A stretch of 25,415 bases of DNA from Fibrobacterota bacterium (GCA_043753995.1 JAYUVP010000059.1:1-25415); one strand, 5' to 3'. Shown: positions 3,727 to 21,673, numbered from the stretch's first letter. A program made the numbers and translations. Notes: generated by a model from the sequence alone, not told the origin.

Positions 3727-3774
3727 TCGGCTGGCATCTTTCGCTGGCTCGCCCTCTCACCTAGGTTATTGACC

Positions 3775-4782
3775 ATGTTCGTGGATGAAACCCTTATCGA
3801 TTTAACAGCCGGCAATGGCGGCAATGGCGCTGTCGGTTTTCGCCGGGAAAAATACGTTCCTTTTGGCGGCCCTGATGGCGGAGATGGCGGGCGAGGTGGT
3901 CACGTTATCCTCAAGGCCAGCAAAGACTTGCATACCCTTTATGATATCGGGAATCGCCGTCAATTCAAGGCCGATTCCGGTATGGGTGGCAGCGGTTCTT
4001 TGTCGACGGGTCGCAGCGGCGAAGATGTCGATATTCTGGTTCCCGTCGGGACCTTGGTTAAAGACGCTGAAACCAAGGACTTGCTTTGCGATCTCAAAGA
4101 GGATGGCCAAACCTTTCTCGCAGTTCGAGGTGGCAAGGGCGGCTTAGGCAATAGCCATTTCAAAACGCCGACGCATCAGACTCCACGTAAATCCACGCCG
4201 GGAGAACCTGGAGAGCGCCGTAAGTTTCAGCTTGAGCTCAAGCTTATGGCCGATTGCGGCTTGGTGGGCTTTCCCAATGCTGGCAAGAGCTCTATCATTC
4301 GCCGCATTTCTGCCGCGACACCCAAGGTTGCCGACTATCCCTTCACGACCTTAAAGCCCGTCTTGGGCCTGGTGCGCGTACATGATCATTCCAGTTTTGT
4401 GATTGTAGATGTCCCTGGTTTGATTGAAGGTGCCGCCGACGGCAAGGGCTTAGGGCATCAATTCCTCAAGCATATCGAACGCACCAGCGTGCTTTGCTTC
4501 GTTCTCGATTTGGCTGACCCGGAACCTTGGAACCAATTCGAAATTTTGCGCGGGGAATTGGGACGCTTTCATCCCCAGTTGCTGGAAAAGCCCTATTTGA
4601 TTGCCCTGAATAAAACGGATTTAGGCGAATTCATACCTGACGAGCGCTTTGCGAAACTGGGCGAAGGCCATCCTGTGATCTTAACCTCGACCGTGACCGG
4701 CACAGGTCTAGACGCCTTAAAGCAAGAGGCCTTTCGCCAGGTTGTGGCAAAAGGCCTCCGTAAAACCGATACTTGGAATTGA
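3775..4782 (+). CDS. obgE: GTPase ObgE/CgtA
   Basis: MFVDE start (ATG 3775); Gly-rich Obg fold FRREKYVPFGGPDGGDGGRGG; G1 GFPNAGKSS, G2 YPFTT, G3 DVPGLIEGA, G4 NKTD; GLGHQFLKHIERT. Confidence 0.97.
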   Translation: MFVDETLIDLTAGNGGNGAVGFRREKYVPFGGPDGGDGGRGGHVILKASKDLHTLYDIGNRRQFKADSGMGGSGSLSTGRSGEDVDILVPVGTLVKDAETKDLLCDLKEDGQTFLAVRGGKGGLGNSHFKTPTHQTPRKSTPGEPGERRKFQLELKLMADCGLVGFPNAGKSSIIRRISAATPKVADYPFTTLKPVLGLVRVHDHSSFVIVDVPGLIEGAADGKGLGHQFLKHIERTSVLCFVLDLADPEPWNQFEILRGELGRFHPQLLEKPYLIALNKTDLGEFIPDERFAKLGEGHPVILTSTVTGTGLDALKQEAFRQVVAKGLRKTDTWN

Positions 4783-4831: not shown

Positions 4832-5290
4832 CTAGTTTTCGTCGTAAGCGCGTTCGACTTCTTCGCGATCTTTCTTCTCATTGATTTCGCTAGCAAAGCT
4901 GCGATCAATGGGAAGCGCGCTCACGTCAGGATTGGTGTTATCCAAGATGTAAACGGCGGAAGGATTATCCAGCCAGCCCACGACTTCGACGTCCTTTAGG
5001 CTATGGCTACCGCCGCTGCTGACCTTGACTTTTTCGAGGCTGCCATTGTCCACCCAGCCCTTCACATTTCCGGCCGTCTTAATCATAGAGCGGGACTTGC
5101 CTTGCTTGAGCAAGGTCACTTCATCGCCGCCACCGACGTCGGCAATCTTGTCAGCTTCATCGGCCAGCTCGGATTTATAGAGTCCCGTGCTTCCACCCTT
5201 GATTCGAGTTACCTCGGTCATACTGGTTTTGGAAGCCGCGAGGGCACCGGTCACAATCAAAAGCAGAAAGAACGCTAAGACCTTCTTCAT
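4832..5290 (-). CDS. Secreted SH3-like domain protein with a CglF/GltF-like C-terminal segment
   Basis: Signal peptide MKKVLAFFLLLIVTGALA; SH3b-like segment GDEVTLLKQGKSRSMIKTAGNVKGWV; C-terminal LKDVEVVGWLDNPSAVYIL...RSFASEINEKKDRE. RBS-like GGAAGGGA lies upstream. Confidence 0.65.
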   Translation of the reverse strand: MKKVLAFFLLLIVTGALAASKTSMTEVTRIKGGSTGLYKSELADEADKIADVGGGDEVTLLKQGKSRSMIKTAGNVKGWVDNGSLEKVKVSSGGSHSLKDVEVVGWLDNPSAVYILDNTNPDVSALPIDRSFASEINEKKDREEVERAYDEN

Positions 5291-5320
5291 GGAAAATCCC
5301 TTCCGTGGTACAGATCAAGC

Positions 5321-5349
5321 AATATATCGCCTTAGCCGCGTTTACACAA
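5321..5349 (-). promoter_or_regulatory. Putative sigma70 promoter for the SH3-like gene, TTGTGT-N17-TATATT
   Basis: On the minus strand, -35 TTGTGT (5349-5344) and -10 TATATT (5326-5321) with a 17-nt spacer, 30 nt upstream of the ATG at 5290. Confidence 0.45.
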
Positions 5350-5378
5350 GCGAATGACCAAAAAACCCCGGCCGGATT

Positions 5379-5407
5379 TTGCACTAAAAAAACGCCAGGG
5401 GTATAAT
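5379..5407 (+). promoter_or_regulatory. Putative sigma70 promoter for the motor/polysaccharide gene run, TTGCAC-N17-TATAAT
   Basis: TTGCAC (5379-5384), a 17-nt spacer and a perfect TATAAT (5402-5407). An AAGGA RBS precedes ATG 5446. Confidence 0.7.
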
Positions 5408-5445
5408 CATCGCTAAACGCAAAAGTTCCTCAAAGGACTCATTCC

Positions 5446-6183: not shown

Positions 6184-6200
6184 TCCAGGACAATAAAGAC

Positions 6201-6713: not shown

Positions 6714-7192
6714 GAGCCAAGAAGCGTAAGCCTCCTGAAGTGGCCAAACCGCAAATGACATCCCTGGTGGATGTACTCACCGTGCTCGTGTTTTTCCTGC
6801 TCAAGAATTTTTCAACCGAAGGCGACATAATCACGCCGGCTCCTGGGCTGACCTTGCCCAGCAGTACGGCCAGGGAAAGGCCGGAAAAAACCTTGGTCAT
6901 CGCCATTAGTCAAGAACATGTCCTTGCCGAAGGGCAACCCATTGCCGCGGTGCTCGACGAGGAGAAACGCCCCGGTTACCGTATTCCGGCTTTGAGTGAT
7001 TGGCTGGATAAGCGCCGTAAATCCACTGAAAATATTTCCCAAATCGACTCCACCGTGGGTTTTACCGGCAAGCTCAGCATTCAAGGCGATCGAGCCATTC
7101 CTTTCGCGATCTTGCAAAAAGTCTTGGTGACCTGCGGCGAAAAGGGCTATTCCGATTTCGCCTTAACCGTCGATCGTAAGGACGACAAATAG
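6710..7192 (+). CDS. ExbD/TolR family protein (Asp retained, AglS-like)
   Basis: QMTSLVDVLTVLVFFLLKNFS TM; LTLPSS; IQGDRAIPFAILQKVLVTCGEKGY. ATG 6710 overlaps the upstream stop (ATGA). Confidence 0.92.
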   Translation: MRAKKRKPPEVAKPQMTSLVDVLTVLVFFLLKNFSTEGDIITPAPGLTLPSSTARERPEKTLVIAISQEHVLAEGQPIAAVLDEEKRPGYRIPALSDWLDKRRKSTENISQIDSTVGFTGKLSIQGDRAIPFAILQKVLVTCGEKGYSDFALTVDRKDDK

Positions 7193-7193: not shown

Positions 7194-8195
7194 ATGAGTC
7201 CCTCGTCATCGCCAAGCACTCCCCCGACTCAAAGCCCAGGCGATAAAAGGCGCTATAAGGACGGCCCATTTGATCAACTCGATGTGCCCGCCATTGCCAG
7301 CTTTGTGCTTTGCTTGCTCGGCCTTTTTCTATTCCTGACCTGGGTTCGTTCTCTCGACGGAAGTCACTTCATAACCGAGGGTGAAAGCAATGGTGTGGAT
7401 CGGGTGGCGCGCATCCTTATGCCGCCGAAAATGGCCTTTATTCCCTCTTCCGCCGATGTGCCGAGGCAGGTAAGCCTGGCACCGAGCACGCGTCCCAAGC
7501 CCGCCCCCGTCGATCCCACGGCTCGTTCCCGCATCGAGCGCTCTAGGCAGGCAGTGGAGCAACATATTGAAAAAGTGCAGCAAACAATGCCTAAGTCCGG
7601 CTTGCTCGCCATTCTTTCCGCCAAGGGTGGAGGCAGGGGCACGGCTGTCGGCGCCTTGGGATCACGAATGCGGATTTCGGGCCTGGGTAGCCTAGGATCA
7701 CGCCTGCAAGGCTTAGAAGGGCTATCCCGAGTGAGTGGCAATCAAGCCCTGCGGTCCGATCAAAGCAAGGAGCCTGCCGATGTAGGCATTGACAAGCTTT
7801 ATAAAGGATTCGACAATGCCAAGTTGGGGGCGCTCTCGAAAATCGGATCACTTGATCTCGATAAGAGCGAGAGAGTAGACCGGGGGCGGCGATATGCGAA
7901 TGCGCGCAATGTACAGGAACTGCATGCCGTCATCAGCCGCAAGCAAACCGCCATCCGCATGCTCTATGAAGAAAGGCTTCGTACCAGGCCGGATCTCGAA
8001 GGTAAAATCACCTTGATGCTAGTCATTGAGGAGGATGGCACGGTGTCCCACGTGAGCGCTATTCCCGGAGAAACAAGCCTCGACGACACCGATTTGATCG
8101 CTGAAATATTAAGGGTGGTGAAGCGCTGGGTATTTCCAGCTTTTACCGGTGGAGCCATCGAATTAAAAACCCCGTTCGTCCTGAAGCCCCAATGA
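7194..8195 (+). CDS. TonB-like energy transducer with AgmX/PglI-type C-terminal domain (GltG-like)
   Basis: Single N-terminal TM; Pro-rich then Gly-rich linker containing KSGLLAIL; C-terminal IRMLYEERLRTRPDLEGKITLMLVIEEDGTVSHV...VKRWVFP...KTPFVLKP, a TonB_C-like fold. Confidence 0.85.
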   Translation: MSPSSSPSTPPTQSPGDKRRYKDGPFDQLDVPAIASFVLCLLGLFLFLTWVRSLDGSHFITEGESNGVDRVARILMPPKMAFIPSSADVPRQVSLAPSTRPKPAPVDPTARSRIERSRQAVEQHIEKVQQTMPKSGLLAILSAKGGGRGTAVGALGSRMRISGLGSLGSRLQGLEGLSRVSGNQALRSDQSKEPADVGIDKLYKGFDNAKLGALSKIGSLDLDKSERVDRGRRYANARNVQELHAVISRKQTAIRMLYEERLRTRPDLEGKITLMLVIEEDGTVSHVSAIPGETSLDDTDLIAEILRVVKRWVFPAFTGGAIELKTPFVLKPQ

Positions 8196-9088
8196 AAAAA
8201 GCAAATGTGAAATGGCTTAGCTGGATCATGATTTTTGCATTTGTGACGCAAGCCGCCGTCATTAAGCCCGGTATGTATTTGAATATCGTGGTAAAGAATG
8301 ACAAGGATTTATCGCAAATCGTGCGGGTCAATGATAATGGCACCATAGACTATCCGCTCTATCAGGATATGAGCATTTCCGGAAAAACCACTAGCGAATT
8401 GCAGGACTTGCTCACCTATAAGCTCGCCAAGGTAGTGGAATCGCCACTGGTACTGGTGAGCGTCATTACGGAAAACCCCATCAACCTCTATGTGCTGGGA
8501 CAGGTTAAAAAACCAGGACTGGTCACCGCGGTTCCCAAAGCGAATTTGCAGGAAGTCCTGATGCTGGCTCTAGGTCCCACGGAGCAGGCCGACCTTTCGC
8601 GCGTCAAAGTCGTACACCGGAATCTCGGCGACGAAACGGCCAACTATTATGACTTGCAGCGTTTTCTATCGAGCGGCGACCTGTCATTACTTCCCAATTT
8701 AGAAGATGGAGATCGCATCATTTTTCTCAGCTCAAAAAAATCGAAATACATCAAGGTCCTGGGGGCGGTGAACAAGCCCGGTTTTTATCCCCTCACTGAA
8801 GCCGCATCGGTATTTGACATGGTCTATCTCGCCGGAGGTCCCACGGTCGACGCCAATTTGAATAAGGTGAGAATCATGAGTGCGCCTGGCGGACAGAAGT
8901 CAGACTTCCTCCTCGATATGCAAAAGTTCATTGATGAAGGCAAAACCGAGAACTTGCCATTACTAGGCGAAGGGGATGTGGTCATTGTCTATGCCAAGTC
9001 CTTCACCTGGGAAAAAAGTCTTGCCGTGGTCCGCGATTTGGTCGCCTTGGTGACGGCCTGGTTCGTCATCTCACAATTGGCGAAATGA
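8192..9088 (+). CDS. Polysaccharide export protein, OPX/Wza-like, with two SLBB domains
   Basis: Poly_export-like VRVNDNGTIDYPL...GKTTSEL; SLBB starts YVLGQVKKPG and KVLGAVNKPGFY; LEDGD and LGEGD ends; C-terminal amphipathic helix; lies directly upstream of wzc. Confidence 0.88.
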   Translation: MKKANVKWLSWIMIFAFVTQAAVIKPGMYLNIVVKNDKDLSQIVRVNDNGTIDYPLYQDMSISGKTTSELQDLLTYKLAKVVESPLVLVSVITENPINLYVLGQVKKPGLVTAVPKANLQEVLMLALGPTEQADLSRVKVVHRNLGDETANYYDLQRFLSSGDLSLLPNLEDGDRIIFLSSKKSKYIKVLGAVNKPGFYPLTEAASVFDMVYLAGGPTVDANLNKVRIMSAPGGQKSDFLLDMQKFIDEGKTENLPLLGEGDVVIVYAKSFTWEKSLAVVRDLVALVTAWFVISQLAK

Positions 9089-9089
9089 C

Positions 9090-11222
9090 ATGAGAACCTT
9101 GCAGCGCGAACTCGATTTCGCCGACTACCTGCGGCTAATCAACAAGAACAAATGGATTCTATTGATTTCGCTAGTGGCCTTCCTAGCCCCCACATGGTGG
9201 TTCGTGCAGCGCATCCCCAATATCTATGTGGCCCAAGCGCAAGTGGTTATGGACGAGGCCAAAGGCAATCCTTTGATGATGGGCATGGACGAGGGGCCTA
9301 AGCACAATCTCGGCTACTATCGGGCGATTTTCCGTAGTAAGGCATTTCAAGATCGCCTCATGCAGGCCACCTCGGAAAGTCTTATCAAAGCGGGTATGCC
9401 GACCACCCGCGAAGCCATGGACAAATATGTCGAATTGGGCGAAGGCATGGTGGAGTCCTTTATTTCACTTTCGGCGCACACTTCCAATGCTTCCATGAGC
9501 TATCAATTAGCGCAGACCGCGACGGATTCCCTGGTGGTTTTTTGCCGACGCGTTTCCAACGAAGAAAGTGAAAAAGCCATTGAGGCCATCAAGGCGCAGA
9601 TCGAAATCTGCGTGCGGAAAAGGGATTCGATCCAATTTCAGAAAAGCACCTTCACCGACGTATCACGCATGTCGAGCCGTGGCGACAATTTGGGACTTGA
9701 GGCGCTAGAGAAAAACTATCAAGACGAACTGGTCAAATTCGAGCTCGACAAAGCCAATCTCGAAGCGAAGCGAACTTATTTCCAGGCTTTGGATAAAAGC
9801 ATGCACCAGGGACAGGCCGGAGTCAATGACACAGCGGTGCAGTCCGCGAAAGAGCATCTAAAGCAATTGGAGAAAGAAAAGGAAAAAATGCTTCGCCTCG
9901 GCATTACCCTTACGCCCGAAAGCCCGCTTTCACAAGACTTACAACAAACCGAAGAGCGAATCGTCAAGCTCACCCGCAAGGGCGAACCGCAAGACCTCAA
10001 TGTTTTAGCCCAATGGCAAGTGATGCGTAAGGAAGTCACAGCCATGGAATCAGACATGCAATTGAAAAAAGCCAGGCTGGATGCGTTCAAGAAAGCCATT
10101 ATCCAATACCGCGAATCCCACCCTGACCTTGGCAAGCAGGAATATGAAATCAAGCAACTCGACAACTTGCTCGAACGTTATACCGAAACGCATAAGCGGC
10201 TCACGGACCGGCTCGAAGATGCCATCATTCAATTGCAAAGCAAAAGTGGTGGGCTCAAAATCGTCGACGCAGCGCAATTGCCCACGACCCCAGTGGCACG
10301 TAAGGACTACATCTTTTATTTGGTTGCATTTGTGGTCGCACTCGGCTTCGGCATTGGACTTTCGGTCCTGAGAGAATTCCTCGATGATACGGTGAAGACC
10401 AATGATGATATTGAAAAGCATTTGGCCTTAACCCTATTGGGAACCATTCCCCATATCGAAACCTCGAAAGCCGATCTCGAAGTTCAACGCACCTTCACTA
10501 AGGGCAAGCAAAGAATCCGGAATCGCTATCCCGAGCTCATCATTGGAGAAAAAAGTGAGGAAAGCATTGTCGCCGAAGCCTATCGCAGCTTGCGCACCAA
10601 TGTGGTTTTCGCCTCACCTGACAAGCCCATACAAACCTTGCTCATCACCAGCTCTGGTCCTGGCGAAGGCAAGTCCCTGACAATGGCCAATACCGCTTTG
10701 AGCTTTGCCCAACAAGGCGAGCCCACCCTCATCGTGGATACCGATTTACGCCGTCCTGTCGCCCATCATCTATTCGGCATAGAAAGGTCCCCTGGATTCG
10801 GCGAAATCATCGCAGGAACCGCCACCATAGACGAATGCATACGGGACATACAGGGAGCGCAACTCAAGGTCATCACCGCGGGCGCCTATATGCCGAATCC
10901 CGCCGAAGTCCTTGGCTCGCGAAAAATGGATAACCTGCTCAAGGAATTAAAGCAGAGATTCCACTATATCCTCTTCGACACCCCCCCCGTCATCGCCGTC
11001 ACGGACGCCGCTATTCTTGCCACCAAACTGGATGGCGTCATTCTTGTCACCCGGTCTGGAAAAACAAGCATGCAGGTCAGCCAAAGGACTCTGCAATCCT
11101 TGCGCAATGTGAATGCTCGCATACTGGGCTGCATTCTCAATGATGTCGATATCACCCAGGGCTATTCAAGCCACAGCTATTACAAGCATTATTATCATCA
11201 TTACATGACCCGCAAGGACTGA
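9090..11222 (+). CDS. wzc: Polysaccharide co-polymerase / BY-kinase (Wzc family)
   Basis: Two TMs flanking a coiled-coil periplasmic region; EAYRSLRTN; Walker A SSGPGEGKS, A' IVDTDLRRP, B ILFDTPP; Tyr-rich tail GYSSHSYYKHYYHHY. Confidence 0.95.
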   Translation: MRTLQRELDFADYLRLINKNKWILLISLVAFLAPTWWFVQRIPNIYVAQAQVVMDEAKGNPLMMGMDEGPKHNLGYYRAIFRSKAFQDRLMQATSESLIKAGMPTTREAMDKYVELGEGMVESFISLSAHTSNASMSYQLAQTATDSLVVFCRRVSNEESEKAIEAIKAQIEICVRKRDSIQFQKSTFTDVSRMSSRGDNLGLEALEKNYQDELVKFELDKANLEAKRTYFQALDKSMHQGQAGVNDTAVQSAKEHLKQLEKEKEKMLRLGITLTPESPLSQDLQQTEERIVKLTRKGEPQDLNVLAQWQVMRKEVTAMESDMQLKKARLDAFKKAIIQYRESHPDLGKQEYEIKQLDNLLERYTETHKRLTDRLEDAIIQLQSKSGGLKIVDAAQLPTTPVARKDYIFYLVAFVVALGFGIGLSVLREFLDDTVKTNDDIEKHLALTLLGTIPHIETSKADLEVQRTFTKGKQRIRNRYPELIIGEKSEESIVAEAYRSLRTNVVFASPDKPIQTLLITSSGPGEGKSLTMANTALSFAQQGEPTLIVDTDLRRPVAHHLFGIERSPGFGEIIAGTATIDECIRDIQGAQLKVITAGAYMPNPAEVLGSRKMDNLLKELKQRFHYILFDTPPVIAVTDAAILATKLDGVILVTRSGKTSMQVSQRTLQSLRNVNARILGCILNDVDITQGYSSHSYYKHYYHHYMTRKD

Positions 11223-11225
11223 ATC

Positions 11226-12908
11226 GTGAAGTCGCTCGCGCGCGTCGTCAGCAACAGCCTTCACTTTTTGTTTTCCAATCTCCTAGGCTTCGCTATGGGC
11301 ATGGTGGCGTCCATCGTCATGGCGCGTACCTTAGGGCCAAATGATTTGGGGATTTTTCATCAAGCCCAATGGTTCGCGGGAACGCTCTCTTTTTGCCTTT
11401 CTCTAGGATTCATGACTACGGTGACTAAGTTCACGGCACAATATCGCGCAGAAGGAAGACATGCCGATATTGCAGCAGCGGTTCGTTTCATTTACCGTGT
11501 CGAATTCGCCATTGGCCTAATAGCTACCGTCGGACTCATTCTCTTCGCCCTGCCTATAGCCGATCATTATTTTTCCCCGAATGAATCACCGCTTTTCATT
11601 TTGGCCTTTTTAGCCATCACACCAGGGCTTCAGACCGCCGTCCTCTCGTCCGCAATGGAAGGCGCGCAGATTTTCAGGTATCAAAGCCTTCACGCCATGA
11701 CGCTTACACCGCTTTCTCTCATCGCCAAAGTCGTATTACTGGTTCAAGGCTATGGTCTAATTGGACTATTCTGGTGTAATCTTGCTTTTGCGGTTTTTAA
11801 TCTGGCCTTTTATCATTGGGCTGTGGACCGAGAAGGCCTCATCGCCAATTCCAACCGCAATGACGCGAATCCATCCAAAACCTGGAAAGGGGAATTGCTC
11901 GGCTATACTCGTTCTATCGTGGGCATTCAATTCGTCGATTTGCTGGTATGGTCACGTTCCGAAAATTATTTCTTGGGCCGTTTCTGCCAAGCCGCGGAAA
12001 TCGCCTACTATAACCTGGCGCAAAATCTTCTACTCCGTTTTACGGGGATATTGCCGAACCTCATGTGGAAAATGCTGCTTCCACTCACGGCCGATCACCA
12101 TGGCCGGGAGGATACTGTTAAACTCGGTCGAACCTATCAGCTCGCCATGCGATATGCGGCCTGTATTTCCTTTCCCATCATCACGTCCTGCTTCTTCGCG
12201 TCCTTTGAACTCATCGTGATCTTTTATGGACACCTTTATGCAGAGGCGAAAACTTGTTTTCAAATTTTATGCGTAGGCGCCCTATTAACAACCTTGGCAC
12301 AGCCAGGATCGGCGGCATTATACGCCACCGATAGGCAAAAATTCATTTTTCGCTATGGTTTAGTTTTAGCGGTATTTAATATCGCCTTTAACTTCTGGAT
12401 CATTCCCAAATTTGGAGCCACCGGCGCCGCAGCCAGTTATGCCATAACCACCGGACTCGGTGCCATTGGGGGGTTCATTTACACATGGCATACCTTAGGC
12501 TTTGCTTTGCCTTTCGCTTCCTTTATCCGCTGCGCTATCGCCAGCGCTGGACTAGGGATAGTCTTGGTGGCTGCACTGAATATGCCCGTCGAACCTTTTG
12601 ACTTCCTCACCGGACTTTCGCGAACATTGCGTAATCACACCGGTTATGGAATGGAAATTTTGCTTGGCGCACGCACCCTACGTTTGCTATTGGCATTATG
12701 CCTTGGAAGTACCACCTATGCGATTTTCCTTTTCATTTTGGCCAAACCCAATTCTGATGACCTTTTGGTCTTGGAGTCTTTGCGGCGTTACCTGCCTAAG
12801 CCCGTAGCCAAGGGTTTGCAATGGGCGGTGAGCCACAAGAAGCCGCTTGCCACTATCCACTCGCCACTATCCGCCCAAGAAATTGGCACCGACAACGATT
12901 CTGTATAA
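11226..12908 (+). CDS. wzx: Oligosaccharide flippase (Wzx/MOP family)
   Basis: GTG start; many hydrophobic helices; ARTLGPNDLGIF; N...IPKFGATGAAASY; locus context. Confidence 0.9.
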   Translation: MKSLARVVSNSLHFLFSNLLGFAMGMVASIVMARTLGPNDLGIFHQAQWFAGTLSFCLSLGFMTTVTKFTAQYRAEGRHADIAAAVRFIYRVEFAIGLIATVGLILFALPIADHYFSPNESPLFILAFLAITPGLQTAVLSSAMEGAQIFRYQSLHAMTLTPLSLIAKVVLLVQGYGLIGLFWCNLAFAVFNLAFYHWAVDREGLIANSNRNDANPSKTWKGELLGYTRSIVGIQFVDLLVWSRSENYFLGRFCQAAEIAYYNLAQNLLLRFTGILPNLMWKMLLPLTADHHGREDTVKLGRTYQLAMRYAACISFPIITSCFFASFELIVIFYGHLYAEAKTCFQILCVGALLTTLAQPGSAALYATDRQKFIFRYGLVLAVFNIAFNFWIIPKFGATGAAASYAITTGLGAIGGFIYTWHTLGFALPFASFIRCAIASAGLGIVLVAALNMPVEPFDFLTGLSRTLRNHTGYGMEILLGARTLRLLLALCLGSTTYAIFLFILAKPNSDDLLVLESLRRYLPKPVAKGLQWAVSHKKPLATIHSPLSAQEIGTDNDSV

Positions 12909-12912
12909 TGCC

Positions 12913-14061
12913 ATGGGACGACGATGCGCAGTCTTCATTGATGCCGAACCCCCCAGTCTTACCGGGGGTGGCATTCGAAGTTATTTGCTGCACACTGCCA
13001 CCTTGCTACAGAATGCCGGAATGGACATTCGCATTTATAGTCAAAGTCCGGAAGCCTTTTCTGATTTTCATTGCCGACCGATACAAAGGAAACCTTGGCC
13101 TCCCAGACCTTTACGCGGATGGCTTTACAAGCATGCTTATGCCCAAGCCGTCGCCTTTGAGCAATCGTTGTGGCTAGCGGATACCCTACTGGCCGATCAC
13201 CATGAACAAATGCGGTACGAATTCTGTGACTATGACGGCCTAACCTTTCATGCATTGCTTCGCCCGCCTTTAAAAGCATGCCTCAGCGTGCGTGTGCATA
13301 CCCCCCTTTTTTTAATACCCGGTTCCCATAATCGAGGAGAAAGTGTTTGGCCAAGGCGCCTACTTGCCTGGCGAGAAAAGTTTTGCTTAAGCCGAACACC
13401 CAAGTTGTCGGCACCCTCACCAGAGTTTCTGGCGGAAAAATTACCGGATTTACAGAGGGCCATTACACTATTCAATCCGCCACCGGAAATGACAGCTTTC
13501 TCCGGGAAACGCACCCGAGAACCGCTGAGGCCCGACTTTCTTTTTCTGGGACGATGGGAAAAACGCAAAGGCTTGCTTGAACTTTTGCAGGCCTTCGCCT
13601 CATTTCAAAAGCACGTCCCTGAAGCCCGCTTAACCGTAATCGGTGAGTCGGGAAAAAGCGATTATGCCGGACAAGTTTCCGCCTTTATCGGAAAGGGATT
13701 ACCCTGGCTGACCGTAGAACCGGCCTATGCCGGGCCCAAGGATGAATTGTTTTCCCGCTTCAGTGTGCTATTGATTCCCTCGCTTTGGGAAAATGCCCCT
13801 TATGTGTTTTACGAAGCTTTGGCCCATGGCATCTTGGCCCTAGGCTCAGCTACTGGAGACATGGGTGCAGCGCAAAAGCAAACCCACCAATTGAATCCGC
13901 AAGGAGGATCTCCAGAAAATTGGACCGCAGCCTTGCTGAAACTTTGGGAATACCGTCACCTAGCCGTTACCTGGCGGGAAAAGCAAATTGCCTGGATACG
14001 CGGGCGCCGAAAAACGACCGAAAATGACATGATTAAATATTGGACACATTGGCCCATATAG
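12913..14061 (+). CDS. Glycosyltransferase family 4
   Basis: GGGIRSY, FLFLGRWEKRKG, PSLWENAPYVFYEALAHG (EX7E). ATG 12913 is preferred, 4 nt after the wzx stop. Confidence 0.88.
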   Translation: MGRRCAVFIDAEPPSLTGGGIRSYLLHTATLLQNAGMDIRIYSQSPEAFSDFHCRPIQRKPWPPRPLRGWLYKHAYAQAVAFEQSLWLADTLLADHHEQMRYEFCDYDGLTFHALLRPPLKACLSVRVHTPLFLIPGSHNRGESVWPRRLLAWREKFCLSRTPKLSAPSPEFLAEKLPDLQRAITLFNPPPEMTAFSGKRTREPLRPDFLFLGRWEKRKGLLELLQAFASFQKHVPEARLTVIGESGKSDYAGQVSAFIGKGLPWLTVEPAYAGPKDELFSRFSVLLIPSLWENAPYVFYEALAHGILALGSATGDMGAAQKQTHQLNPQGGSPENWTAALLKLWEYRHLAVTWREKQIAWIRGRRKTTENDMIKYWTHWPI

Positions 14062-14072
14062 GCTTGATTCGT

Positions 14073-15311
14073 ATGCGTATCGGCATCATTTCCCGCGAAT
14101 TCCCTCCCGACACCCATGTCGGCGGCATCGCCACCTTTAGTGATATCGCCTCCCGACTCTTAGTGCAGCATGGTCATGAAGTGCATGTCTTCTGCAATGG
14201 CGGCAAAACAGAATTGCATAAGGACGGCAATTTGTGGGTGCATCGCATTGCTATGGGGTCGCATCCATTGCCTCAGAGTCGATGGCTTTACCCTTGGCGC
14301 CGCTATGTCAGGCAAAATCTTCCTGCTTGGTTAGATGCCCTCACCTGGGCGCATACCGTTTCTGCCTACCTCGCGAATCACGTGGATATTTCCCGATTTG
14401 ATGCTTGGGAATGGCCCGAAACCAATGGCGAAGGCGCATGCCTTCCTCCTTTACCCATTGAATCGCGACGTATTTGTCGCATCCATACCTCTTGGCTCGA
14501 TAAGTCCATGCACAATGTTTTGGAAAAGAAAATGCTTTTGCGCCTGCAAAAGCAGGCTTGCCTGAAAGCCAGCCAAGTCGTTTCCCCAAGCCTTGCCATG
14601 ACGCAAAATTATGCCTCCCAGGTTTTGCGTTTACCCCATCCCGTGCTAGCATCGCCCAATCCCATGCGGAATTGGAAAGAGCGATTGAATTGGGAGGCGA
14701 AGTCCAATTCGAATCTTCTATTCATTGGGCGCATCGAATACCGCAAAGGAATAGACCTGCTATTAAAGGCAATAGACGACCTTGCCAATCAGGGTTACGC
14801 CGCGACACTGCGCGTGGCAGGAGCACTGAACCCGCCTTTTGCACCCGGTGATTCCGAAGTTCAAACAGCCTTTCAACTGGCTTTGAAAACCTTTTCCTCC
14901 TCGAGTAAAAGCAAAATCAGAATTGAATTTTTAGGACCGCTACCCCATTCCCAATTGCATGAGCAACTGGACTGGGCCGGACTCGTGATTTTGCCTTCGC
15001 GCATGGACAATTATCCCTATGTATTGCTGGAAGCCTTGACCCGTGGCTGTTGCATTTTGGCGACCCAGGTGGGAGGTGTTAGAGAAATTTGCGGTGATCA
15101 GCCCTTCGCCCAATGGATAGAACCGGATGACCCTGTCGCCCTTAGCCTCAAAATGCGACAATGGTTGCAAGTGAAATCCGATTTCAAGGGGCTTTGGCAC
15201 CAAGCAGCGGAATTCGCGACCCTTCATTTCAGCGAGGAAGCAAGCTACCAGCGGCTGATGCGACTTTATGGCCTTGCCACAAGCCCCTCATCCAGGCTAT
15301 CGAGCGATTAA
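14073..15311 (+). CDS. Glycosyltransferase family 4
   Basis: MRIGIISREFPP..GGIATF, GHEVHV, LFIGRIEYRKGIDLL, PSRMDNYPYVLLEALTRG. Confidence 0.92.
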   Translation: MRIGIISREFPPDTHVGGIATFSDIASRLLVQHGHEVHVFCNGGKTELHKDGNLWVHRIAMGSHPLPQSRWLYPWRRYVRQNLPAWLDALTWAHTVSAYLANHVDISRFDAWEWPETNGEGACLPPLPIESRRICRIHTSWLDKSMHNVLEKKMLLRLQKQACLKASQVVSPSLAMTQNYASQVLRLPHPVLASPNPMRNWKERLNWEAKSNSNLLFIGRIEYRKGIDLLLKAIDDLANQGYAATLRVAGALNPPFAPGDSEVQTAFQLALKTFSSSSKSKIRIEFLGPLPHSQLHEQLDWAGLVILPSRMDNYPYVLLEALTRGCCILATQVGGVREICGDQPFAQWIEPDDPVALSLKMRQWLQVKSDFKGLWHQAAEFATLHFSEEASYQRLMRLYGLATSPSSRLSSD

Positions 15312-15894
15312 ACGATTGCTGGACATAGTCGGCAGCCTTCTTGGCCTTCTGTTGTTTTTTTTGTTTTTGCCTTTCCTCGCCATGCTGATCAAGTTGGATT
15401 CGCGCGGCCCCATCCTTTTTGTGCAAACTCGCGTGGGACAATACGGTCGCAGGTTCAAGTTTGTCAAACTTCGCACCATGATAGTCGATGCGCATCAGCT
15501 CCAATGGGAATTGAATGCCTTCAATGAAACGGGTGGCCTGACTTTCAAAATGGATAAGGACCCTCGCATCACGCGCGTAGGACGCCTACTTCGACGCACT
15601 AGTCTGGATGAGACACCCCAGTTTTGGAATGTCCTCCGTGGCGAAATGTCCTTGGTCGGCCCACGTCCTCCCCTCTTAAACGAAGTCGAACGCTATGACG
15701 AACAGCAGCGAATACGCATGACCGTGCCCCAAGGCATGACCGGCCTTTGGCAGGTGCGTGGACGATCCGGACTACGCTTCGGTGAAATGGCCAATCTCGA
15801 CAACTATTATGCGTTGCACGCCAATTTGCCTCTCGACTTGGCCATACTTTGGCACACACTTCCGGTCGTATTCTCGGGTCGAGGAGCGCGATGA
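15268..15894 (+). CDS. Priming phosphoglycosyl transferase (bacterial sugar transferase, small monotopic form)
   Basis: KRLLDI, KLDSRGP, KLRTM, DPRITRVGRLLRRTSLDETPQFWNVLRGEMSLVGPRP, GMTGLWQV. Confidence 0.95.
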   Translation: MALPQAPHPGYRAIKRLLDIVGSLLGLLLFFLFLPFLAMLIKLDSRGPILFVQTRVGQYGRRFKFVKLRTMIVDAHQLQWELNAFNETGGLTFKMDKDPRITRVGRLLRRTSLDETPQFWNVLRGEMSLVGPRPPLLNEVERYDEQQRIRMTVPQGMTGLWQVRGRSGLRFGEMANLDNYYALHANLPLDLAILWHTLPVVFSGRGAR

Positions 15895-16853
15895 CTAGGG
15901 TTGCACTGCATGCCGAGACCCTGGCCCACTCTTCAAACATGACCTTGGCCGTGGTCACCTTCAATCAAGCGACTTTGCTTAAACTTTTTCTCGCCCGCTA
16001 TCTGAGCCATGGTGCTTCGCTGGTTCGCCTACTCACCATCGACGACGGATCCACGGACGAAACTCCGGAGTTACTGCGCCTGTCAGCGATGCATCCGGAA
16101 ATTACCACCCTTCGCATCGAACATGGTGGGGCGGCCAAGGCCCGCAATGTTGCTCTCAAAACTTGTGTCACCCAATGGTTGGCCTTTACCGACACGGACT
16201 GCGAATTCGACTCAAATTATTTCCTTCAGTTATTACGCGTGCCTACTCTTTTTCCCAATGCCATCGCCGTCGAAGGCGCGGTTCTCCCTCCTGACGGACC
16301 CAAACCCCCCTTGACCCATTGGCTGGAAAACGCGAAGGGTGGAATATTTGCCACGGCGAATTTGGCGTTGCGGCCTACAGCCATTCTCACCTTGGGTGGT
16401 TTTGACGAAGCCTATCCCAGCAATTTGCGAGAGGACACCGACTTAGGCCTCAGGCTCCTGGAGCAAAATCACCCTTGCCCTTTTTTTGCTGACTTGCAGG
16501 TTCGACATCCTTTTGTACCCCGGAAATGGCGCGTTTCCATGGCCCGGGCCTGGCATCGTCAGTGGGAAACCATGCAAGCCGAATCGCGTCTGTATGAGAA
16601 GCATAGGGACTCCTATCGAAAAGTCCGCCGATTGGAAAGTGCCACCGCAACCATGACATGGTGGCGCAAGCGACATTTGGCCTTTTATGCCAAGCAAAAT
16701 TGGGCTTGGACCCAGGCACAATGCGCGAACGGATTTCGATCGGGCATTCAAGCCCTTGTCCGCTATAGTGCCGCCTTGGTTTTGGCAGCTTGGGAACAAC
16801 TTTGCTTGAATCTCCATTGGTTTTTAAACCGGAAAAAACTGGGCATATCTTGA
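15891..16853 (+). CDS. Glycosyltransferase family 2
   Basis: VVTFN, IDDGSTDET, GAAKARN, FTDTDC (DxD), GGFDE...EDTDLGLR. ATG 15891 forms an ATGA overlap. Confidence 0.92.
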   Translation: MTRVALHAETLAHSSNMTLAVVTFNQATLLKLFLARYLSHGASLVRLLTIDDGSTDETPELLRLSAMHPEITTLRIEHGGAAKARNVALKTCVTQWLAFTDTDCEFDSNYFLQLLRVPTLFPNAIAVEGAVLPPDGPKPPLTHWLENAKGGIFATANLALRPTAILTLGGFDEAYPSNLREDTDLGLRLLEQNHPCPFFADLQVRHPFVPRKWRVSMARAWHRQWETMQAESRLYEKHRDSYRKVRRLESATATMTWWRKRHLAFYAKQNWAWTQAQCANGFRSGIQALVRYSAALVLAAWEQLCLNLHWFLNRKKLGIS

Positions 16854-18025
16854 AACGCGAATGCGTGCTTTTGGTGTGGAGTGGAGGGGTCAATCCCGCG
16901 TATTGGTCCTTTTTCGAAGAACTTGGCAAACATGTCGAATTACGGGTACTGACGCCTAAAAGATGGCGACACGGCTCGGTTGAATTCACCTTTCCTTCGC
17001 GAAGCGAAAGACCGGTAAATTACCGCCTGATTCAAGTTGCCTTCCTTTCTTTGGGGCATGCCCGCTATTGGATTCCCAGCCTTATCATTCATCTATTCAC
17101 CCATCGCTCCACCCTTTTGTATTGGATGGATGAACCCGATCGATGGGTCACGACCGTGCATGCCTGGATAGCCAAATTTTTTAGGCCCGACTTGCGGATT
17201 TGTGCTTACATGCTGCAAAACCTGGAAAAGCCAAGCTATTACCGCGACATTCATCGCTGGGCTTGGTCGCAAAACAAGCATTTGATAGACGGCATACTCG
17301 CCGCAACAAAAGAAGCCGCCGAGGTGGCCCGCAAACACGGATATACCGGGGCATTGCAAGTCGTCCCCCTATTCGCCTCAGAAAAACTTTTCCATCCGCC
17401 GACTTTGTTGGACCGCAAGGCTGCACGTGAACGCTTGGGGCTCCAAGCTTCGGACTATGTCCTTGCCTATGCCGGAAGCCTGCATGAGGCCAAAGGCGTT
17501 TTGAGATTGGCACGGATAATGCAATCCTTTCCTCGCTTGCGACTTTTGATTGCCTCCGGTGATTCATGGCCAAATATTTCAAAGCTGGCCAATACACCTC
17601 TCCTGTTGGGACGATTGATTGGCAAAGAAATGCTTCAGTTATTCCACGCCGCCGACGCCGTCATTTTACCCTCTGAGCCACGAGACCATTGGAAGGAGCA
17701 AATCGGTCGCATTTTGCTCGAAGGTGGACTCAGCGGCTGCCTGGCTTTAGGCAGCGATTCGGGAGCCATCCCAGGAATCGTCGGCGACGCCGATTGTCTT
17801 TTCCATGCCGGCGATGACCACTCCCTTCAAAATTTGCTGGAGAAATTACCTTTTCGTGACGGTATACAAAAAGCTAAAAATCAGCGGGATAGGTATCTCG
17901 CGCAATACGCATCTACTCCTGTCGCGGAAGCAACCCTTCAATTCCTTTTAGCCCTGCGAAAAGGCGAATTCTCCGACAAAACCAATCGACCCGAATTATT
18001 CGGAAAGGCTGAATCTTGCGCATAG
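16850..18025 (+). CDS. Glycosyltransferase family 4
   Basis: YAGSLHEAKG, ADAVILPS...WKEQIGRILLEG, GSDSGAIP. TTG 16850 overlaps the upstream TGA; the start is uncertain. Confidence 0.88.
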   Translation: MKRECVLLVWSGGVNPAYWSFFEELGKHVELRVLTPKRWRHGSVEFTFPSRSERPVNYRLIQVAFLSLGHARYWIPSLIIHLFTHRSTLLYWMDEPDRWVTTVHAWIAKFFRPDLRICAYMLQNLEKPSYYRDIHRWAWSQNKHLIDGILAATKEAAEVARKHGYTGALQVVPLFASEKLFHPPTLLDRKAARERLGLQASDYVLAYAGSLHEAKGVLRLARIMQSFPRLRLLIASGDSWPNISKLANTPLLLGRLIGKEMLQLFHAADAVILPSEPRDHWKEQIGRILLEGGLSGCLALGSDSGAIPGIVGDADCLFHAGDDHSLQNLLEKLPFRDGIQKAKNQRDRYLAQYASTPVAEATLQFLLALRKGEFSDKTNRPELFGKAESCA

Positions 18026-19089
18026 CCTTTTTACATCGCAATGTGCCGCCCGACACCTATACAGGAGTCGCGGTGCAAGTGCATAGGCTAGCCAATGCCT
18101 TGGAGGACTTGGGTCATCAGGTCGACCTTTTCACTTGGACGCCAAATCCATCGGGCGCCAAATATCGAGTCATCACCATGCCGCATTCGGGCCTGGCTTC
18201 GATGGGAATGCGATGGCCTCTGGTAAAGCGCCTATGGCATGCATGGCAATTTCGAAAATTGGATCTCAAATCCTATGATGCCGTGCATGTGCATGGGGAC
18301 GGTGGTTTATTGCGCTACTCCAACCATTGGGTGCGCACGCTTTATGGCTCGGCGGCCTTCGAGCGACGTTACGGTTTTGGTTGGTCATCGTGGATTGCCC
18401 AGACCTTAAGTTTTGCCCTGGAGCGCAGGGAAGCCCGAAGCTGCCGCCACCTCATTGCTATCGGTACGCACGTCAAGAAGGCCATTCCACAAGTTAAGGC
18501 AGTCCTACCGTGTATGCTGGATGCCTCTCCGGTCCAGGAACTCTCCCAAACCTCCGACATACCCACCTTGATTCATGTTGGATCTCTGCGTGGTCGAAAA
18601 CGCGGGCACCTGGCTCTGGATATTTTGCGGCATTTGCATGCTTGGAGAAATGACTTCCGGCTGCATCTAGTCTGCCCACCCAAGGAAGCAAAATCATTAC
18701 GCGAATCCCTGTCTGATGCTCGGGTGGAAGTCCATACCCAAATCACGCGGGAAAAATTGAATGCTCTCTATCGTGAAAGCTGGTTTGCCCTCAGCCTTTC
18801 GACTTATGAAGGCTTTGGTGTCACTTTAATCGAGGCCATGGCCCAGGGTTGCCAAGTACTGTCCGTCCCACATGCTGGCGCCTTGGATTTATTTGAAGAA
18901 GAATGGCCCGAAATACTTTGCGAAATCAAGGCTATGCCAGAACGCATCAAGACCCTGGCCCCTCAAGGGAAACCCGATTCCCAGGCAGCGAAACGTGCCA
19001 AGCAATATGCGGCGCGATTTGCTCCCGGGTTAATCGCTCAAGCCTATGTGGATTTGTATCGAAGCACCTCTGAAGGGCGACGGACATGA
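18016..19089 (+). CDS. Glycosyltransferase family 4
   Basis: TTG start, MRIAFL, LANALEDLGHQV, VGSLRGRKRG, STYEGFGVTLIEAMAQG. Confidence 0.9.
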   Translation: MRIAFLHRNVPPDTYTGVAVQVHRLANALEDLGHQVDLFTWTPNPSGAKYRVITMPHSGLASMGMRWPLVKRLWHAWQFRKLDLKSYDAVHVHGDGGLLRYSNHWVRTLYGSAAFERRYGFGWSSWIAQTLSFALERREARSCRHLIAIGTHVKKAIPQVKAVLPCMLDASPVQELSQTSDIPTLIHVGSLRGRKRGHLALDILRHLHAWRNDFRLHLVCPPKEAKSLRESLSDARVEVHTQITREKLNALYRESWFALSLSTYEGFGVTLIEAMAQGCQVLSVPHAGALDLFEEEWPEILCEIKAMPERIKTLAPQGKPDSQAAKRAKQYAARFAPGLIAQAYVDLYRSTSEGRRT

Positions 19090-20582
19090 ATCGCGTTTGG
19101 CAATGGTTGTGGCTACCCAGCTTGCTCCTGGTAGGGGCCGTTTTCGCTTGGCGCTTGCAAAAAATCCCCTCACGCCAGGAGACCGCGGTTTTCTTCATTC
19201 TTTGCTTCGTGATCCCCACTTTGAAGTGGCCGAAATTCGGGGTCTATTACCTCTTCTTCATTAGCATTTTCATCCCTCTGGGCCGCCGAATGTATTACCT
19301 GGTGAATGGTCGACCGCCATTAGATTATTTGATGCTCATCGGCGATGGCGTTATGGTGGGCTTTATCTGCGCCTTGATTCTGCTGTGGATAGTGAATCGC
19401 GAAAAGATGAAGGAACCCCTCACGGTACTCGTGCTCATCTATGCCTCCTTGCTCTTCATCAAGGTATTTTTCTTGAATCAAGGCACCATGGAAGAAGGTC
19501 TGTATGGATTTAAGTTCAATGGACTTTACGTGCTTTTTTATTTCGCAGGAAGCTATGTCATTGCCCATGCCAAAGGCCTAATCAAGGTTTTGAATTGGGC
19601 CACTTTCGCCTTGATGCTCTCCGCCTTATGGAGTATCAAGCAAGTCACCCTTGGCTTCAGCTCCTTCGAGCAAAAATGGCTGGACTCGATCACTTTCACA
19701 ACGCTTCGCATCGAAGGAGTGGTACGTCCCTTTGGCACCTTTGTTTCGCCTGCGGCTATGGCCGATGCCATGTGCCTGCTTTTGATGCTGGGTGCGTTTT
19801 ATATTGCCTTACGACGTGCCCTCTCGCCCTTGTGGGGCTTTTATTTGGTTTGTCTATCCATCGTTCCCTTGCTCATCGCAACGGTTCGGACGAGTTGGGT
19901 GGGAGCGGCCGCCGGGCTCTTTTTCTTCTTCATTTATTTGCGCATAGAAAAAACGTGGATCAAGGGCGTCATACTTAGTGTCGCCCTTGTCGGGCTAATA
20001 GGCATTATCAGCAAAGGAGACAATCAAAGCGACAGCCAAAATGCCGCTTTGTCGGCTAAAATCAGTGGCTCGTCCTTGACTGACGTGATGATTCGCAAAC
20101 GCACGGCAGCTCTCGCCAATCCTCTGCAGGAATACAGCGTGCGCAAGCGAATGCAGATCTGGGGAGAAATCTGGTATTATGCATTGCAAAAACCACTCGG
20201 GCGCGGCCAAGGTACCCAGGGATATGCTCACAGTTATTATTTCCAAATCCTGGGAGAAATAGGCTTTCCCGGCATATTGGCTTTTCTTGGAATTTTGATT
20301 TTCGCTTTCATTCGTGGCTTTCAAGCCTTGCGCCTAAAGCCGGCCCGCGACGAATTGGAATTAACTCGGTTTTTCCTCAGCATCCTTTTCATGTTTTCCA
20401 TTTTGAATTTGACGGGAACGCATTTACATACCAATCCCGGCGACTTGTATTTCTGGTTCAGTGTCGGAGGGTTGGCGCAACTTTATCGTGATGCGAAACA
20501 GCGGCAGAGCGAGGCCCTCTTGCCAACTCCGAACCCATTGGGAATTGCCTTGCCTCCCGAAAATTGGCCTACCCATGCCTAA
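19086..20582 (+). CDS. O-antigen ligase / Wzy polymerase family membrane protein
   Basis: Polytopic; RPFGTFVSP, TVRTSW, PLGRG, AHSYYFQILGEIGFPG (Wzy_C-like H...E.G motif); ATGA overlap with the upstream GT. Confidence 0.85.
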   Translation: MNRVWQWLWLPSLLLVGAVFAWRLQKIPSRQETAVFFILCFVIPTLKWPKFGVYYLFFISIFIPLGRRMYYLVNGRPPLDYLMLIGDGVMVGFICALILLWIVNREKMKEPLTVLVLIYASLLFIKVFFLNQGTMEEGLYGFKFNGLYVLFYFAGSYVIAHAKGLIKVLNWATFALMLSALWSIKQVTLGFSSFEQKWLDSITFTTLRIEGVVRPFGTFVSPAAMADAMCLLLMLGAFYIALRRALSPLWGFYLVCLSIVPLLIATVRTSWVGAAAGLFFFFIYLRIEKTWIKGVILSVALVGLIGIISKGDNQSDSQNAALSAKISGSSLTDVMIRKRTAALANPLQEYSVRKRMQIWGEIWYYALQKPLGRGQGTQGYAHSYYFQILGEIGFPGILAFLGILIFAFIRGFQALRLKPARDELELTRFFLSILFMFSILNLTGTHLHTNPGDLYFWFSVGGLAQLYRDAKQRQSEALLPTPNPLGIALPPENWPTHA

Positions 20583-21666
20583 GGGACCGCATTTCGGAGT
20601 CTTGGGACATTCCTTGGCTGCACCTGAAAACCGCTTGCCATTCACGGACGACAATCTTAATGCCTCTCTTTTTGCGCCGAAAGCTTGGCAATCCCCGGGC
20701 ACACGTCACCTGCAAGTGACCTCAGCATCAGGGGGAATCCATGCTCTCAACACTATCGGACGGCGACACAATGCCCTCTTCGTCTATCGCGGATTAAGTT
20801 CCGGCTTGCAGACGCAAAACGTGGATTTGCTTTATCTCTGGGAAGAACCCTGGAGTCTTCCGGCATGGCAAGCGTGCCAATGGGCCAAGCGGTATGGCAA
20901 ACCATGGCTTTTTTTCTCCGCGGAGAATCGGCCTAAACCCTTGCCTCCGCCTTTTTCACAATTGCGCCAACGTGTTTTTGCACGGGCTGCGGGCGCCATC
21001 GTCCCAACGGCCGAAGTCGCGGAGAATTTACGACGTCATGGCTATACCGGGGTAACCTATGAAATACCCTTATGGACGGCACCAAAACCTTGGGTTGAGG
21101 CAGACCGTACACCCATTTTGGCCTTTGTCGGGAGGCTAATTCCCTTAAAACGCGTGGACGTCCTGATTCGAGCTGCGGCCCGAGCATCCAACTTTCGCTT
21201 ACGAATCATCGGAGATGGACCCGAAGAGAATAACCTTCGCGATTTGGCGCATCAACTTGGCTTTGACGACCGTATTCAGTTCGTGGGGTATGTCCCTCAC
21301 CAGGAATTGAATTCCGCCTTACAAGGCTGCTGCGCCTTGATCCTACCCACGGCGGCGACGCCACGTCGCGCGGAACAATTCGGAAAATCCGTCATCGAAG
21401 CCATCGCCTTTGGCCTGCCCGTTCTGGTCAGCAATACCGGAAATTTGGGCGAATGGATGAAAACTTTCGATTCGGTGCGAATTGTCCGTTGCGATCGCGA
21501 TATGGATTTAGAGGAGGACATTCAAAATTTTCTGAAAAACCCGGTTTCCCGGGAAATCAGGCTGGCCATGCGTGAAAAAGTCCAACAACGCTATGGACTC
21601 AAGACAACCACCTTGCGATTCCGTGCCGCATTCGAGGATACTTGGAGTAGGTCACAGAAAAGATGA
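20575..21666 (+). CDS. Glycosyltransferase family 4
   Basis: WEEPWS, FVGRLIPLKRVDVL, IIGDGPE, EQFGKSVIEAIAFGLPV. ATG 20575 overlaps the upstream gene by 8 nt. Confidence 0.9.
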   Translation: MPKGPHFGVLGHSLAAPENRLPFTDDNLNASLFAPKAWQSPGTRHLQVTSASGGIHALNTIGRRHNALFVYRGLSSGLQTQNVDLLYLWEEPWSLPAWQACQWAKRYGKPWLFFSAENRPKPLPPPFSQLRQRVFARAAGAIVPTAEVAENLRRHGYTGVTYEIPLWTAPKPWVEADRTPILAFVGRLIPLKRVDVLIRAAARASNFRLRIIGDGPEENNLRDLAHQLGFDDRIQFVGYVPHQELNSALQGCCALILPTAATPRRAEQFGKSVIEAIAFGLPVLVSNTGNLGEWMKTFDSVRIVRCDRDMDLEEDIQNFLKNPVSREIRLAMREKVQQRYGLKTTTLRFRAAFEDTWSRSQKR

Positions 21667-21673
21667 AAACGCA

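Follow-up and report, generated by a model that had tools for sequence, protein, structure and literature searches.

A core secreted SH3b protein of Fibrobacterota with a GltF-like tail is probably a linker for TonB-like motors

Does a small secreted protein encoded directly beside an ExbB/ExbD motor serve that motor, or does its role lie elsewhere in the cell envelope? This question is raised by a gene in a stretch of 25,415 nucleotides from a Fibrobacterota bacterium (GCA_043753995.1, JAYUVP010000059.1:1-25415), referred to here as the window. The gene occupies positions 4832..5290 on the minus strand, with its stop codon at 4832-4834. A preliminary description made from the sequence alone had suggested that the product may be an SH3 domain fused to a CglF/GltF-like segment and had proposed it as a partner of the adjacent motor. 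The open reading frame exists and encodes 152 amino acids; its location on the minus strand was absent from that description. The C-terminal string that had been quoted is also present, with the correction that the gap from YIL to RSF comprises 13 residues (DNTNPDVSALPID) and not 12. An annotation pipeline had been expected to call the gene hypothetical, and this is indeed how every source names the members of the family.

The protein begins with a hydrophobic signal sequence (residues ~1-19; 5234..5290, minus strand; read from the sequence by inspection, with the cleavage site placed by eye) that lacks a lipobox cysteine and by inspection appears to be of the Sec/SPI type. A helix at residues 2-17 is present at this end in the AlphaFold2 models. 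The automatic UniProt name 'lipoprotein', carried by the S85 orthologue (P0400), was rejected as no cysteine follows the signal peptide either in P0400 or in the target protein (P0001). The signal sequence is followed by an SH3b-like beta-barrel (residues ~23-90; 5021..5224, minus strand), which was located with AlphaFold2, Foldseek, TIGR04211 and SH3_3. Taken alone, the target protein gave no match in a Pfam scan at E<=10 and only a sub-threshold match to TIGR04211 (E 0.091). Among the relatives in the family, TIGR04211 matches were found in 70 out of 123, with a best E of 2.1e-8, and the family profile picks out SH3_3 repeats in thirteen of the fifteen large proteins scanned. The SH3_3 repeat proteins matched in this way include amidases, NlpC/P60 proteins, an L,D-transpeptidase and a glucosaminidase. 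AlphaFold2 models the barrel with a pLDDT of ~97 when given a deep alignment, and the top Foldseek matches in the PDB are all SH3 or SH3b structures, 3npf, 2hbw and 6biq among them (best E 3.3e-3, none at or below 1e-3). The relatives, the repeats, the modelled barrel and the structural matches together bear out the SH3b-like domain of the preliminary description, and the N-terminal half of the target is an SH3b domain. By analogy with the domains that accompany SH3_3, and given the YceG neighbourhood of the gene, this barrel most likely binds peptidoglycan.

The remaining residues (91-152; 4835..5020, minus strand) form a conserved tail module that was delimited by invariant columns and by hhalign. 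These ~60 residues are far more conserved than the SH3 part: in an alignment of 30 sequences with 49-80% identity, 25 of the 30 invariant columns fall at residues 102-152, and conservation of the motif lies far above chance. The consensus reads V-x-V-x-G-W-L-D-N-P-x-A-V-Y-I-L-D ... L-P-x-D-R-x-F ... D-R-E-x-V-E-R. None of the known families covers the tail, and an ESM Atlas query with the tail alone returned no usable match. The AlphaFold2 models show the tail as an extended chain in which the sole helix is terminal (residues 142-148), the pLDDT rising from ~45-57 in the model built on 30 sequences to 61-90 in the one built on 123. The motif DVEVVG within the tail had been proposed as a TonB-box-like ligand for the C-terminal domain of the neighbouring TonB-like protein. 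A predicted complex of the tail (residues 93-152) with that domain (residues 228-333 of the protein encoded at 7194-8195) scored 0.01, a value that speaks neither for nor against such binding. A TonB box is a strand near the N-terminus of the plug of an outer-membrane receptor, and DVEVVG is found in the C-terminal half of a soluble protein with neither barrel nor plug; only the binding mode proposed for it would resemble a TonB box.

The target and ExbB are divergent, their start codons (5290 and 5446) being 155 bp apart across an intergenic region (5291..5445, no strand). No sigma-54-type site was found in this region, and the matches over the whole window are at chance level (17 against 15.1 expected). 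One sigma-70-like site occurs on its plus strand and does not rise above shuffled sequences. On the far side of the region, and all on the plus strand, are ExbB (5446-6183), two ExbD genes (6201-6713 and 6659-7192), a TonB-like protein with an AgmX/PglI tail (7194-8195; NF033768, E 4.5e-19) and a polysaccharide cluster of the order Wza-Wzc-Wzx-glycosyltransferases-Wzy (8192..22867), the ExbB, ExbD and polysaccharide genes having been assigned with Pfam and NCBIfam. This block of ~17.5 kb is bounded by the target at one end and by YceG/MltG (22987..24135, plus strand; Pfam YceG, E 1.5e-73) at the other. As listed from their first start codons the two ExbD frames overlap by 55 bp, and the second frame probably begins further downstream than listed. 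The protein encoded at 7194-8195 has the topology of TonB, with one transmembrane helix, a long low-complexity linker and a C-terminal domain. This domain had been described as TonB_C; Pfam TonB_C gave no match, and what was found was NF033768, the AgmX/PglI C-terminal domain, at a score above cut-off, together with a partial match to GltG. Five TonB-like proteins of the AgmX/PglI or GltG type are encoded in the genome of the window (contigs C347, C59, C182, C13 and C353). The joining of an ExbBD motor to Wza/Wzc in one block (window 5446-22867; L173, L177-L196) suggests, by analogy, an energised export or handling of polysaccharide. The part from the motor to Wza-Wzc is conserved in two distant families of Fibrobacterota.

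Several other genes flank this arrangement. Obg GTPase (3769..4782, plus strand) lies convergent and downstream of the target, a neighbour kept only in the gene order of the window. Further along the window come a 749-residue protein (34-2283), whose matches to FliG_M and to diguanylate-cyclase-like domains are no more than weak, and after it a sigma-54-dependent response regulator of the NtrC type (2308-3726). In the clade of the window this pair keeps its synteny with Obg and the target; a sigma-54-type promoter was found close to neither the target nor ExbB. An open-ended frame with a PA14 domain (24245-25414) follows YceG.

Homologues of ~150 residues make up a tight family of 108 matches, and all of its named members belong to Fibrobacterota. 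Of the 296 genomes of the phylum, 275 carry a match to the family profile; the count among high-quality genomes is 163 of 172, and 67 of the 70 genera are represented (tallies that take in one unpublished genome, G254), usually with one or two matches per genome. The target family is a core protein of Fibrobacterota. A tandem, strongly diverged pair of SH3+tail genes in one genome (L175:6586-7026 and 7301-7744, G056:C4) was overlooked by the narrow family profile, so that absence calls made with this profile undercount the family. Neither Pfam nor NCBIfam gives the target protein a name, and a PDB sequence search with the family profile gave no match at E<=10. The orthologue in F. succinogenes is FSU_1460; we found no publication on FSU_1460, C9RPF4 or WP_014545752, and no paper describing either the target family or any GltF-like gene from Fibrobacterota, Luciano 2011 being the only one found to cover Glt genes in Fibrobacter.

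In representative genomes, 122 of 128 candidate stretches belonged to the family, of which 80 loci were kept and compared with the window proteins by tblastn. Three arrangements were observed upstream of the target. ExbB lies divergent from it in 18 of the 80 loci, all from close relatives, YceG is its divergent neighbour in 59 (L016, L021 and all 57 Fibrobacter-type loci, representing two orders), and in one locus without a motor (L023) this position is taken by Wza; in the other two loci the upstream sequence is too short to score. At L023:4338-5908, which comes from a relative within the same order, the target is directly divergent from Wza-Wzc-Wzx with no ExbB, ExbD or TonB-like genes between, which indicates that the motor part can be absent while the polysaccharide part stays. 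The layout of the window recurs in one further genome (G274), whereas in G273, from the same genus, target and YceG are immediate neighbours. These layouts show that the target-YceG pair is a stable frame and that the motor and polysaccharide block is a variable insert. Other neighbours vary and include PFL, cellulase, pilus and receiver-domain genes. Among 80 metagenome loci from other Fibrobacterota lineages, many of them short, ExbB was found nearby in two, approximately the chance expectation for a genome with 12 ExbB genes. Many of the metagenome loci (L094-L160) carry a gene of ~100-135 residues that is convergent and just downstream of the SH3+tail gene, with weak tblastn similarity (22-31%) to an NtrC-type regulator and possibly a receiver domain. 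The distance from the target to the closest GltG-like TonB gene in complete Fibrobacter genomes amounts to 278 kb in G190 and to 1.7 Mb in G226.

The profile search also recovered small secreted proteins of 81-119 residues that consist of the tail only. Two further tail-bearing paralogues without SH3 were found in the genome of the window, neither of them beside a motor. The first, of 171 residues, has its tail joined to a signal peptide through a Pro/Ala-rich linker and adjoins TsaD (C49:6757-7272, minus strand). The second, of 119 residues (C84:21309-21668, plus strand), is separated by 30 bp from the gene downstream of it, which encodes a monofunctional peptidoglycan glycosyltransferase, and has a PBP4/AmiA-like gene nearby. 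A good genome without the SH3 form (G028) contains a tail-only frame of 97 residues inside a motor operon, in the order TPR (1160 aa)-TPR (997 aa)-small-ExbB-ExbD-STAS-ExbD-TonB-like-Wza-Wzc. The STAS-domain frame of 108 residues between both ExbD genes (L173:9863-10189, minus strand) is unusual and there is none in the block of the window. The operonic small frame occurs in 24 of 46 genomes and 8 of 12 genera of one family (f13). It was found directly upstream of ExbB in all 21 f13 loci that were fetched, which share the order small-ExbB-ExbD-ExbD-TonB-like-Wza-Wzc; TPR genes lie upstream in 19 of them, and the remaining two end at contig edges. Gene order and ExbB identity (48-57% to ExbB of the window against 33-38% to a paralogue on contig C347 of the window's own genome, G000) mark the f13 operon as the orthologue of the motor and Wza-Wzc block in the window.

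The relation between the tail of the target and the operonic small proteins was examined by hhalign with an SH3+tail profile built from 101 diverse sequences, out of which the tail-only sequences had been taken. This profile matched the operonic frames (A6) with a probability of 95.6% (E 1.1e-8) over 51 columns, corresponding to target residues 91-141, and the stand-alone tail-only set (A5) with 99.7% (E 3.6e-27) over 60 columns; the tail-only set in turn matched the operonic frames with 96.5% (E 8.9e-10, 43 columns). A narrow alignment of 30 sequences (A1) reached 8.2% against the operonic frames (E 4e-3, 40 columns) in the same register, and 22 reversed or column-shuffled controls gave at most 4.1%. 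The spacing from the proline to the arginine of RSF is 20 residues both in the target and in the operonic small frame; the C-terminal D-R-E helix of the target is absent from the operonic frames. On these profile matches, the target tail is homologous to a secreted operonic protein of ~97 residues. Among the operonic settings of the tail module, only the operon of ExbB, ExbD and TonB-like genes is strictly conserved. When metagenomes were scanned for tail-only loci, nearly all that came back were complete SH3+tail genes; the sole tail-only locus (L155) has a PdxA-like neighbour.

The phyletic pattern was compared with that of the TonB-like class. Proteins with an AgmX/PglI tail were found in 190 of the 194 genomes that are at least 90% complete, and the four genomes without one (G271, G272, G275 and G242) are all without the target, a co-loss to be read with the caveat that both families are near-universal and that the losses concern two lineages at most, with reduced genomes. 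Within one genus (g6), AgmX/PglI-tail proteins above cut-off occur in all four target-bearing genomes and in none of the eight that lack the target. What the four target-bearing genomes have in common is not the motor of the window but a second system, whose counterpart in the genome of the window lies at L166:836-15817 (G000 contig C347, minus strand), immediately upstream of mreB-mreC-mreD. Its order is an OmpA-like gene, two TPR genes (737 and 1266 aa), ExbB, ExbD genes, the TonB-like gene, two unknowns and MreB-MreC-MreD. The OmpA-family protein is also of the beta-helix kind, the TonB-like protein carries the AgmX/PglI tail, the unknown frames have 449 and 140 residues, and one ExbD is apparently split into pieces of 77 and 66 residues. 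This system is a Glt-like 'core complex', comparable to the one that Luciano et al. (PMC3169522) report from one Fibrobacteres genome without gltF. At least two good genomes (G084 and G055) have the TonB-like class and no detectable tail protein, and G059 appears to be without the target. Two apparent exceptions are accounted for by the diverged tandem copies of G056 and by the operonic form of G028, and G025 gave an ambiguous partial tail match inside a frame of 563 residues.

These observations lead to the CglF/GltF-like segment of the preliminary description. GltF and CglF are names for the same protein (as used in PMC4488436), MXAN_4868 in M. xanthus, and its family model is NF033764 with a cut-off of 90 bits. 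According to Table 1 and the related text of PMC3169522, the M. xanthus genes are ordered gltD(TPR)-gltE(TPR)-gltF-gltG and GltF has 89 residues, a signal peptide and no Pfam domain. That paper gives gltF as known only from Myxococcales and Bdellovibrionales and states that it is absent in Fibrobacterota. In the structural model described in PMC11761067 (2025), GltF is mostly disordered, with one strand pairing with the TonB-like domain of GltG and a C-terminal helix seated in the TPR protein GltC. The profile similarity for which the preliminary description had called was not obtained: NF033764 gave no match for the target at E<=10 or anywhere in its genome, and none for the 19 operonic small frames. 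It matched two of 123 relatives, a count at the level of noise as the GatC model matches seven of the same 123; the better of the two (P0251, a tail-only protein) reached 19.7 bits (E 6.5e-4) over nearly the whole model. In the ESM Atlas, P0251 was placed near a Bdellovibrionota cluster (0.86) and a cluster automatically named 'CglF family' (0.85), both at the level of leads only. The NF033764 and ESM Atlas matches of P0251 thus stand as independent, weak leads to CglF. A word-indexed search with the tail-only proteins returned no named CglF, a motif scan of viral contigs gave seven pattern matches and no relative, and tblastn against plasmids gave no match.

By size and domain content (~89 residues, no other domain) the target differs from GltF, having 152 residues and an SH3b domain, and the tail-only homologues (81-119 residues) agree with it. 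By position, the small frames lie between TPR genes and a TonB-like gene in 21 of 21 loci, as gltF does; the target itself is divergent from ExbB, without TPR genes, in 18 loci and lies beside YceG in 59. The GltF-like segment is therefore upheld in architecture, in gene position and in the homology of the tail to small proteins at the gltF position, although not by the family model for the target. Compared through NF033764 and the published descriptions, the tail may be called GltF-like by position and architecture, its kinship in sequence being unproven.

Based on the observed architecture, conservation, tail homology, gene orders and phyletic patterns, we favour, at slightly better than even confidence, a periplasmic adaptor of two modules in which SH3b serves for the wall and the GltF-type tail docks in trans on ExbBD-energised TonB-like machines. 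The protein would be exported to the periplasm via Sec, where the barrel (residues ~23-90) would offer one binding site, most likely for peptidoglycan, and the near-invariant, largely unstructured tail (91-152) would act as a GltF-type linker module. The tail most likely docks on the TonB-like (AgmX/PglI- or GltG-type) or TPR components of envelope machines driven by ExbB/ExbD. Its binding surface is predicted by analogy with the published AlphaFold model in which a strand of GltF pairs with GltG. The target would thus act in trans on the whole machine class and not solely on the neighbouring motor. In the lineage of the window, the block has neither a small tail gene nor TPR genes of its own and lies directly beside the target. 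It may also have some part in force transmission or in polysaccharide export. The protein is probably a linker for TonB-like motors and not a random hypothetical.

A narrower reading, that of the preliminary description, makes the target the dedicated partner of the adjacent motor, with DVEVVG offered to the C-terminal domain encoded at 7194-8195 in the manner of a TonB box. The two are adjacent and divergent in the 18 loci of the clade of the window and in G274, and the orthologous operon elsewhere has its own tail-type gene at the same place. This reading appears quite improbable to us. The target is found in 275 of 296 genomes with the block beside it in one clade only, its usual neighbour is YceG (59 of 80 loci), and three close relatives, G273 (99% complete), G266 (100%) and G269, retain the target without an orthologue of either ExbB or the TonB-like protein of the window, their best matches having 28-31% and 26-28% identity respectively (73% and 40% in G274). 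A dedicated partnership is thus too narrow. The preliminary description had also named homologues unlinked to motor clusters as an outcome that would speak against it; the neighbourhoods of the target taken alone correspond to this outcome, but the operonic small frames of f13, which lie in the motor operon in 21 of 21 loci, do not.

The main rival to the trans-acting adaptor is an accessory of MltG (YceG) in peptidoglycan remodelling, with SH3b on the wall and a tail that would bind or regulate MltG-type enzymes, the tail module being shared with motors. It draws on the divergent target-YceG pairing in two orders, on the position of YceG at the far side of the block in the window and directly beside the target in G273, on the similar SH3b domains of amidases, NlpC/P60 proteins, L,D-transpeptidases and glucosaminidases, and on the C84 paralogue 30 bp upstream of a peptidoglycan glycosyltransferase. 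YceG was found beside the gene in none of the 80 metagenome loci of other lineages (tblastn 1e-4; many loci short), and a synteny passed down inside a single class may account for the pairing; the C84 adjacency has no second instance, as that query recovered the paralogue in one of 39 genomes of its order, and the strictly conserved operonic context of the tail is that of the ExbB/ExbD/TonB-like operon only. We consider an MltG-linked wall factor unlikely, and it is compatible with the motor adaptor, the two not being exclusive. The target could also be a general structural protein of the periplasm or envelope whose tail binds an outer-membrane protein, itself or polysaccharide, the motor link being coincidental. 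A core, usually single-copy gene with variable neighbours and a tail covered by no known family would fit such a protein, but it accounts neither for the homologous small frame being operonic in 21 of 21 loci nor for the gene being missing precisely where the TonB-like class is missing, and we rate it as distinctly unlikely. The stronger claim that the motor link is wholly spurious was rejected, having been overturned by the operonic small frames and the tail homology.

A bolder form of the trans-acting adaptor would make the target a universal coupler of Fibrobacterota, its tail entering every GltG-type motor and SH3b gripping peptidoglycan as the fixed point, with the GltF module being ancient and widespread. 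We hold this extension to be doubtful. If true, the coupler would serve the Glt-like core complex next to mreBCD as well as the motor joined to Wza/Wzc export, and the GltF module would be an old part of Glt-type machines, overlooked as short and fast-diverging, and not a recent myxobacterial invention. Some genomes apparently have one tail gene and one GltG-like TonB gene (G226). Glt-type machines, which combine an ExbBD-like motor with a TonB-like transducer and with TPR proteins, drive gliding and spore-coat assembly in Myxococcus, and the present findings bear on how force is transferred across the periplasm and on the possible anchoring of such machines to the wall. New elements are an unannotated module family absent from Pfam, a protein at the GltF position in Fibrobacterota motor operons fused to polysaccharide export, and a phylum-wide version of the tail fused to an SH3 domain of the wall-binding type, a candidate link from motor to wall. 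To our knowledge, the surface adhesion machinery of the cultivable cellulose degrader F. succinogenes is poorly understood.

Four known systems invite comparison. GltF, in the published model referred to above, is an unstructured chain with a strand and a terminal helix, and the target tail would have the same layout by analogy only; the tail-only homologues share the gene position of gltF, whereas the target differs in its extra SH3b domain, its 152 residues, its place outside the operon, its occurrence in Fibrobacterota and its lack of a match to NF033764. Wall-binding SH3b proteins and the YgiM-type TIGR04211 'SH3_and_anchor' proteins resemble the target in fold, in profile similarity (residues ~23-90) and in secretion. 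The TIGR04211 proteins end in a membrane anchor and the SH3b hydrolases carry catalytic domains, whereas in the target only a conserved linear tail follows SH3b. In the Agl-Nfs/Exo system of the M. xanthus spore coat, as outlined in PMC3858216, a polysaccharide pathway of the Wza/Wzc type depends on functional coupling with a Glt-type motor that resembles ExbBD/TolQR. The block of the window and its f13 orthologue, with TPR genes and a small tail gene, unite motor and Wza/Wzc in one operon, which is known here from its genes, whereas the motor, Nfs and Exo genes form separate clusters in Myxococcus. In the TolB-Pal/TolA system, a periplasmic protein offers one short strand to a TonB/TolA-type protein, energised by ExbBD/TolQR, at the C-terminal domain of the latter, while a partner module holds peptidoglycan. 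The domains differ, with a beta-propeller and an OmpA-like domain in place of SH3b, but Tol-Pal is alike in principle to the role proposed here for the target.
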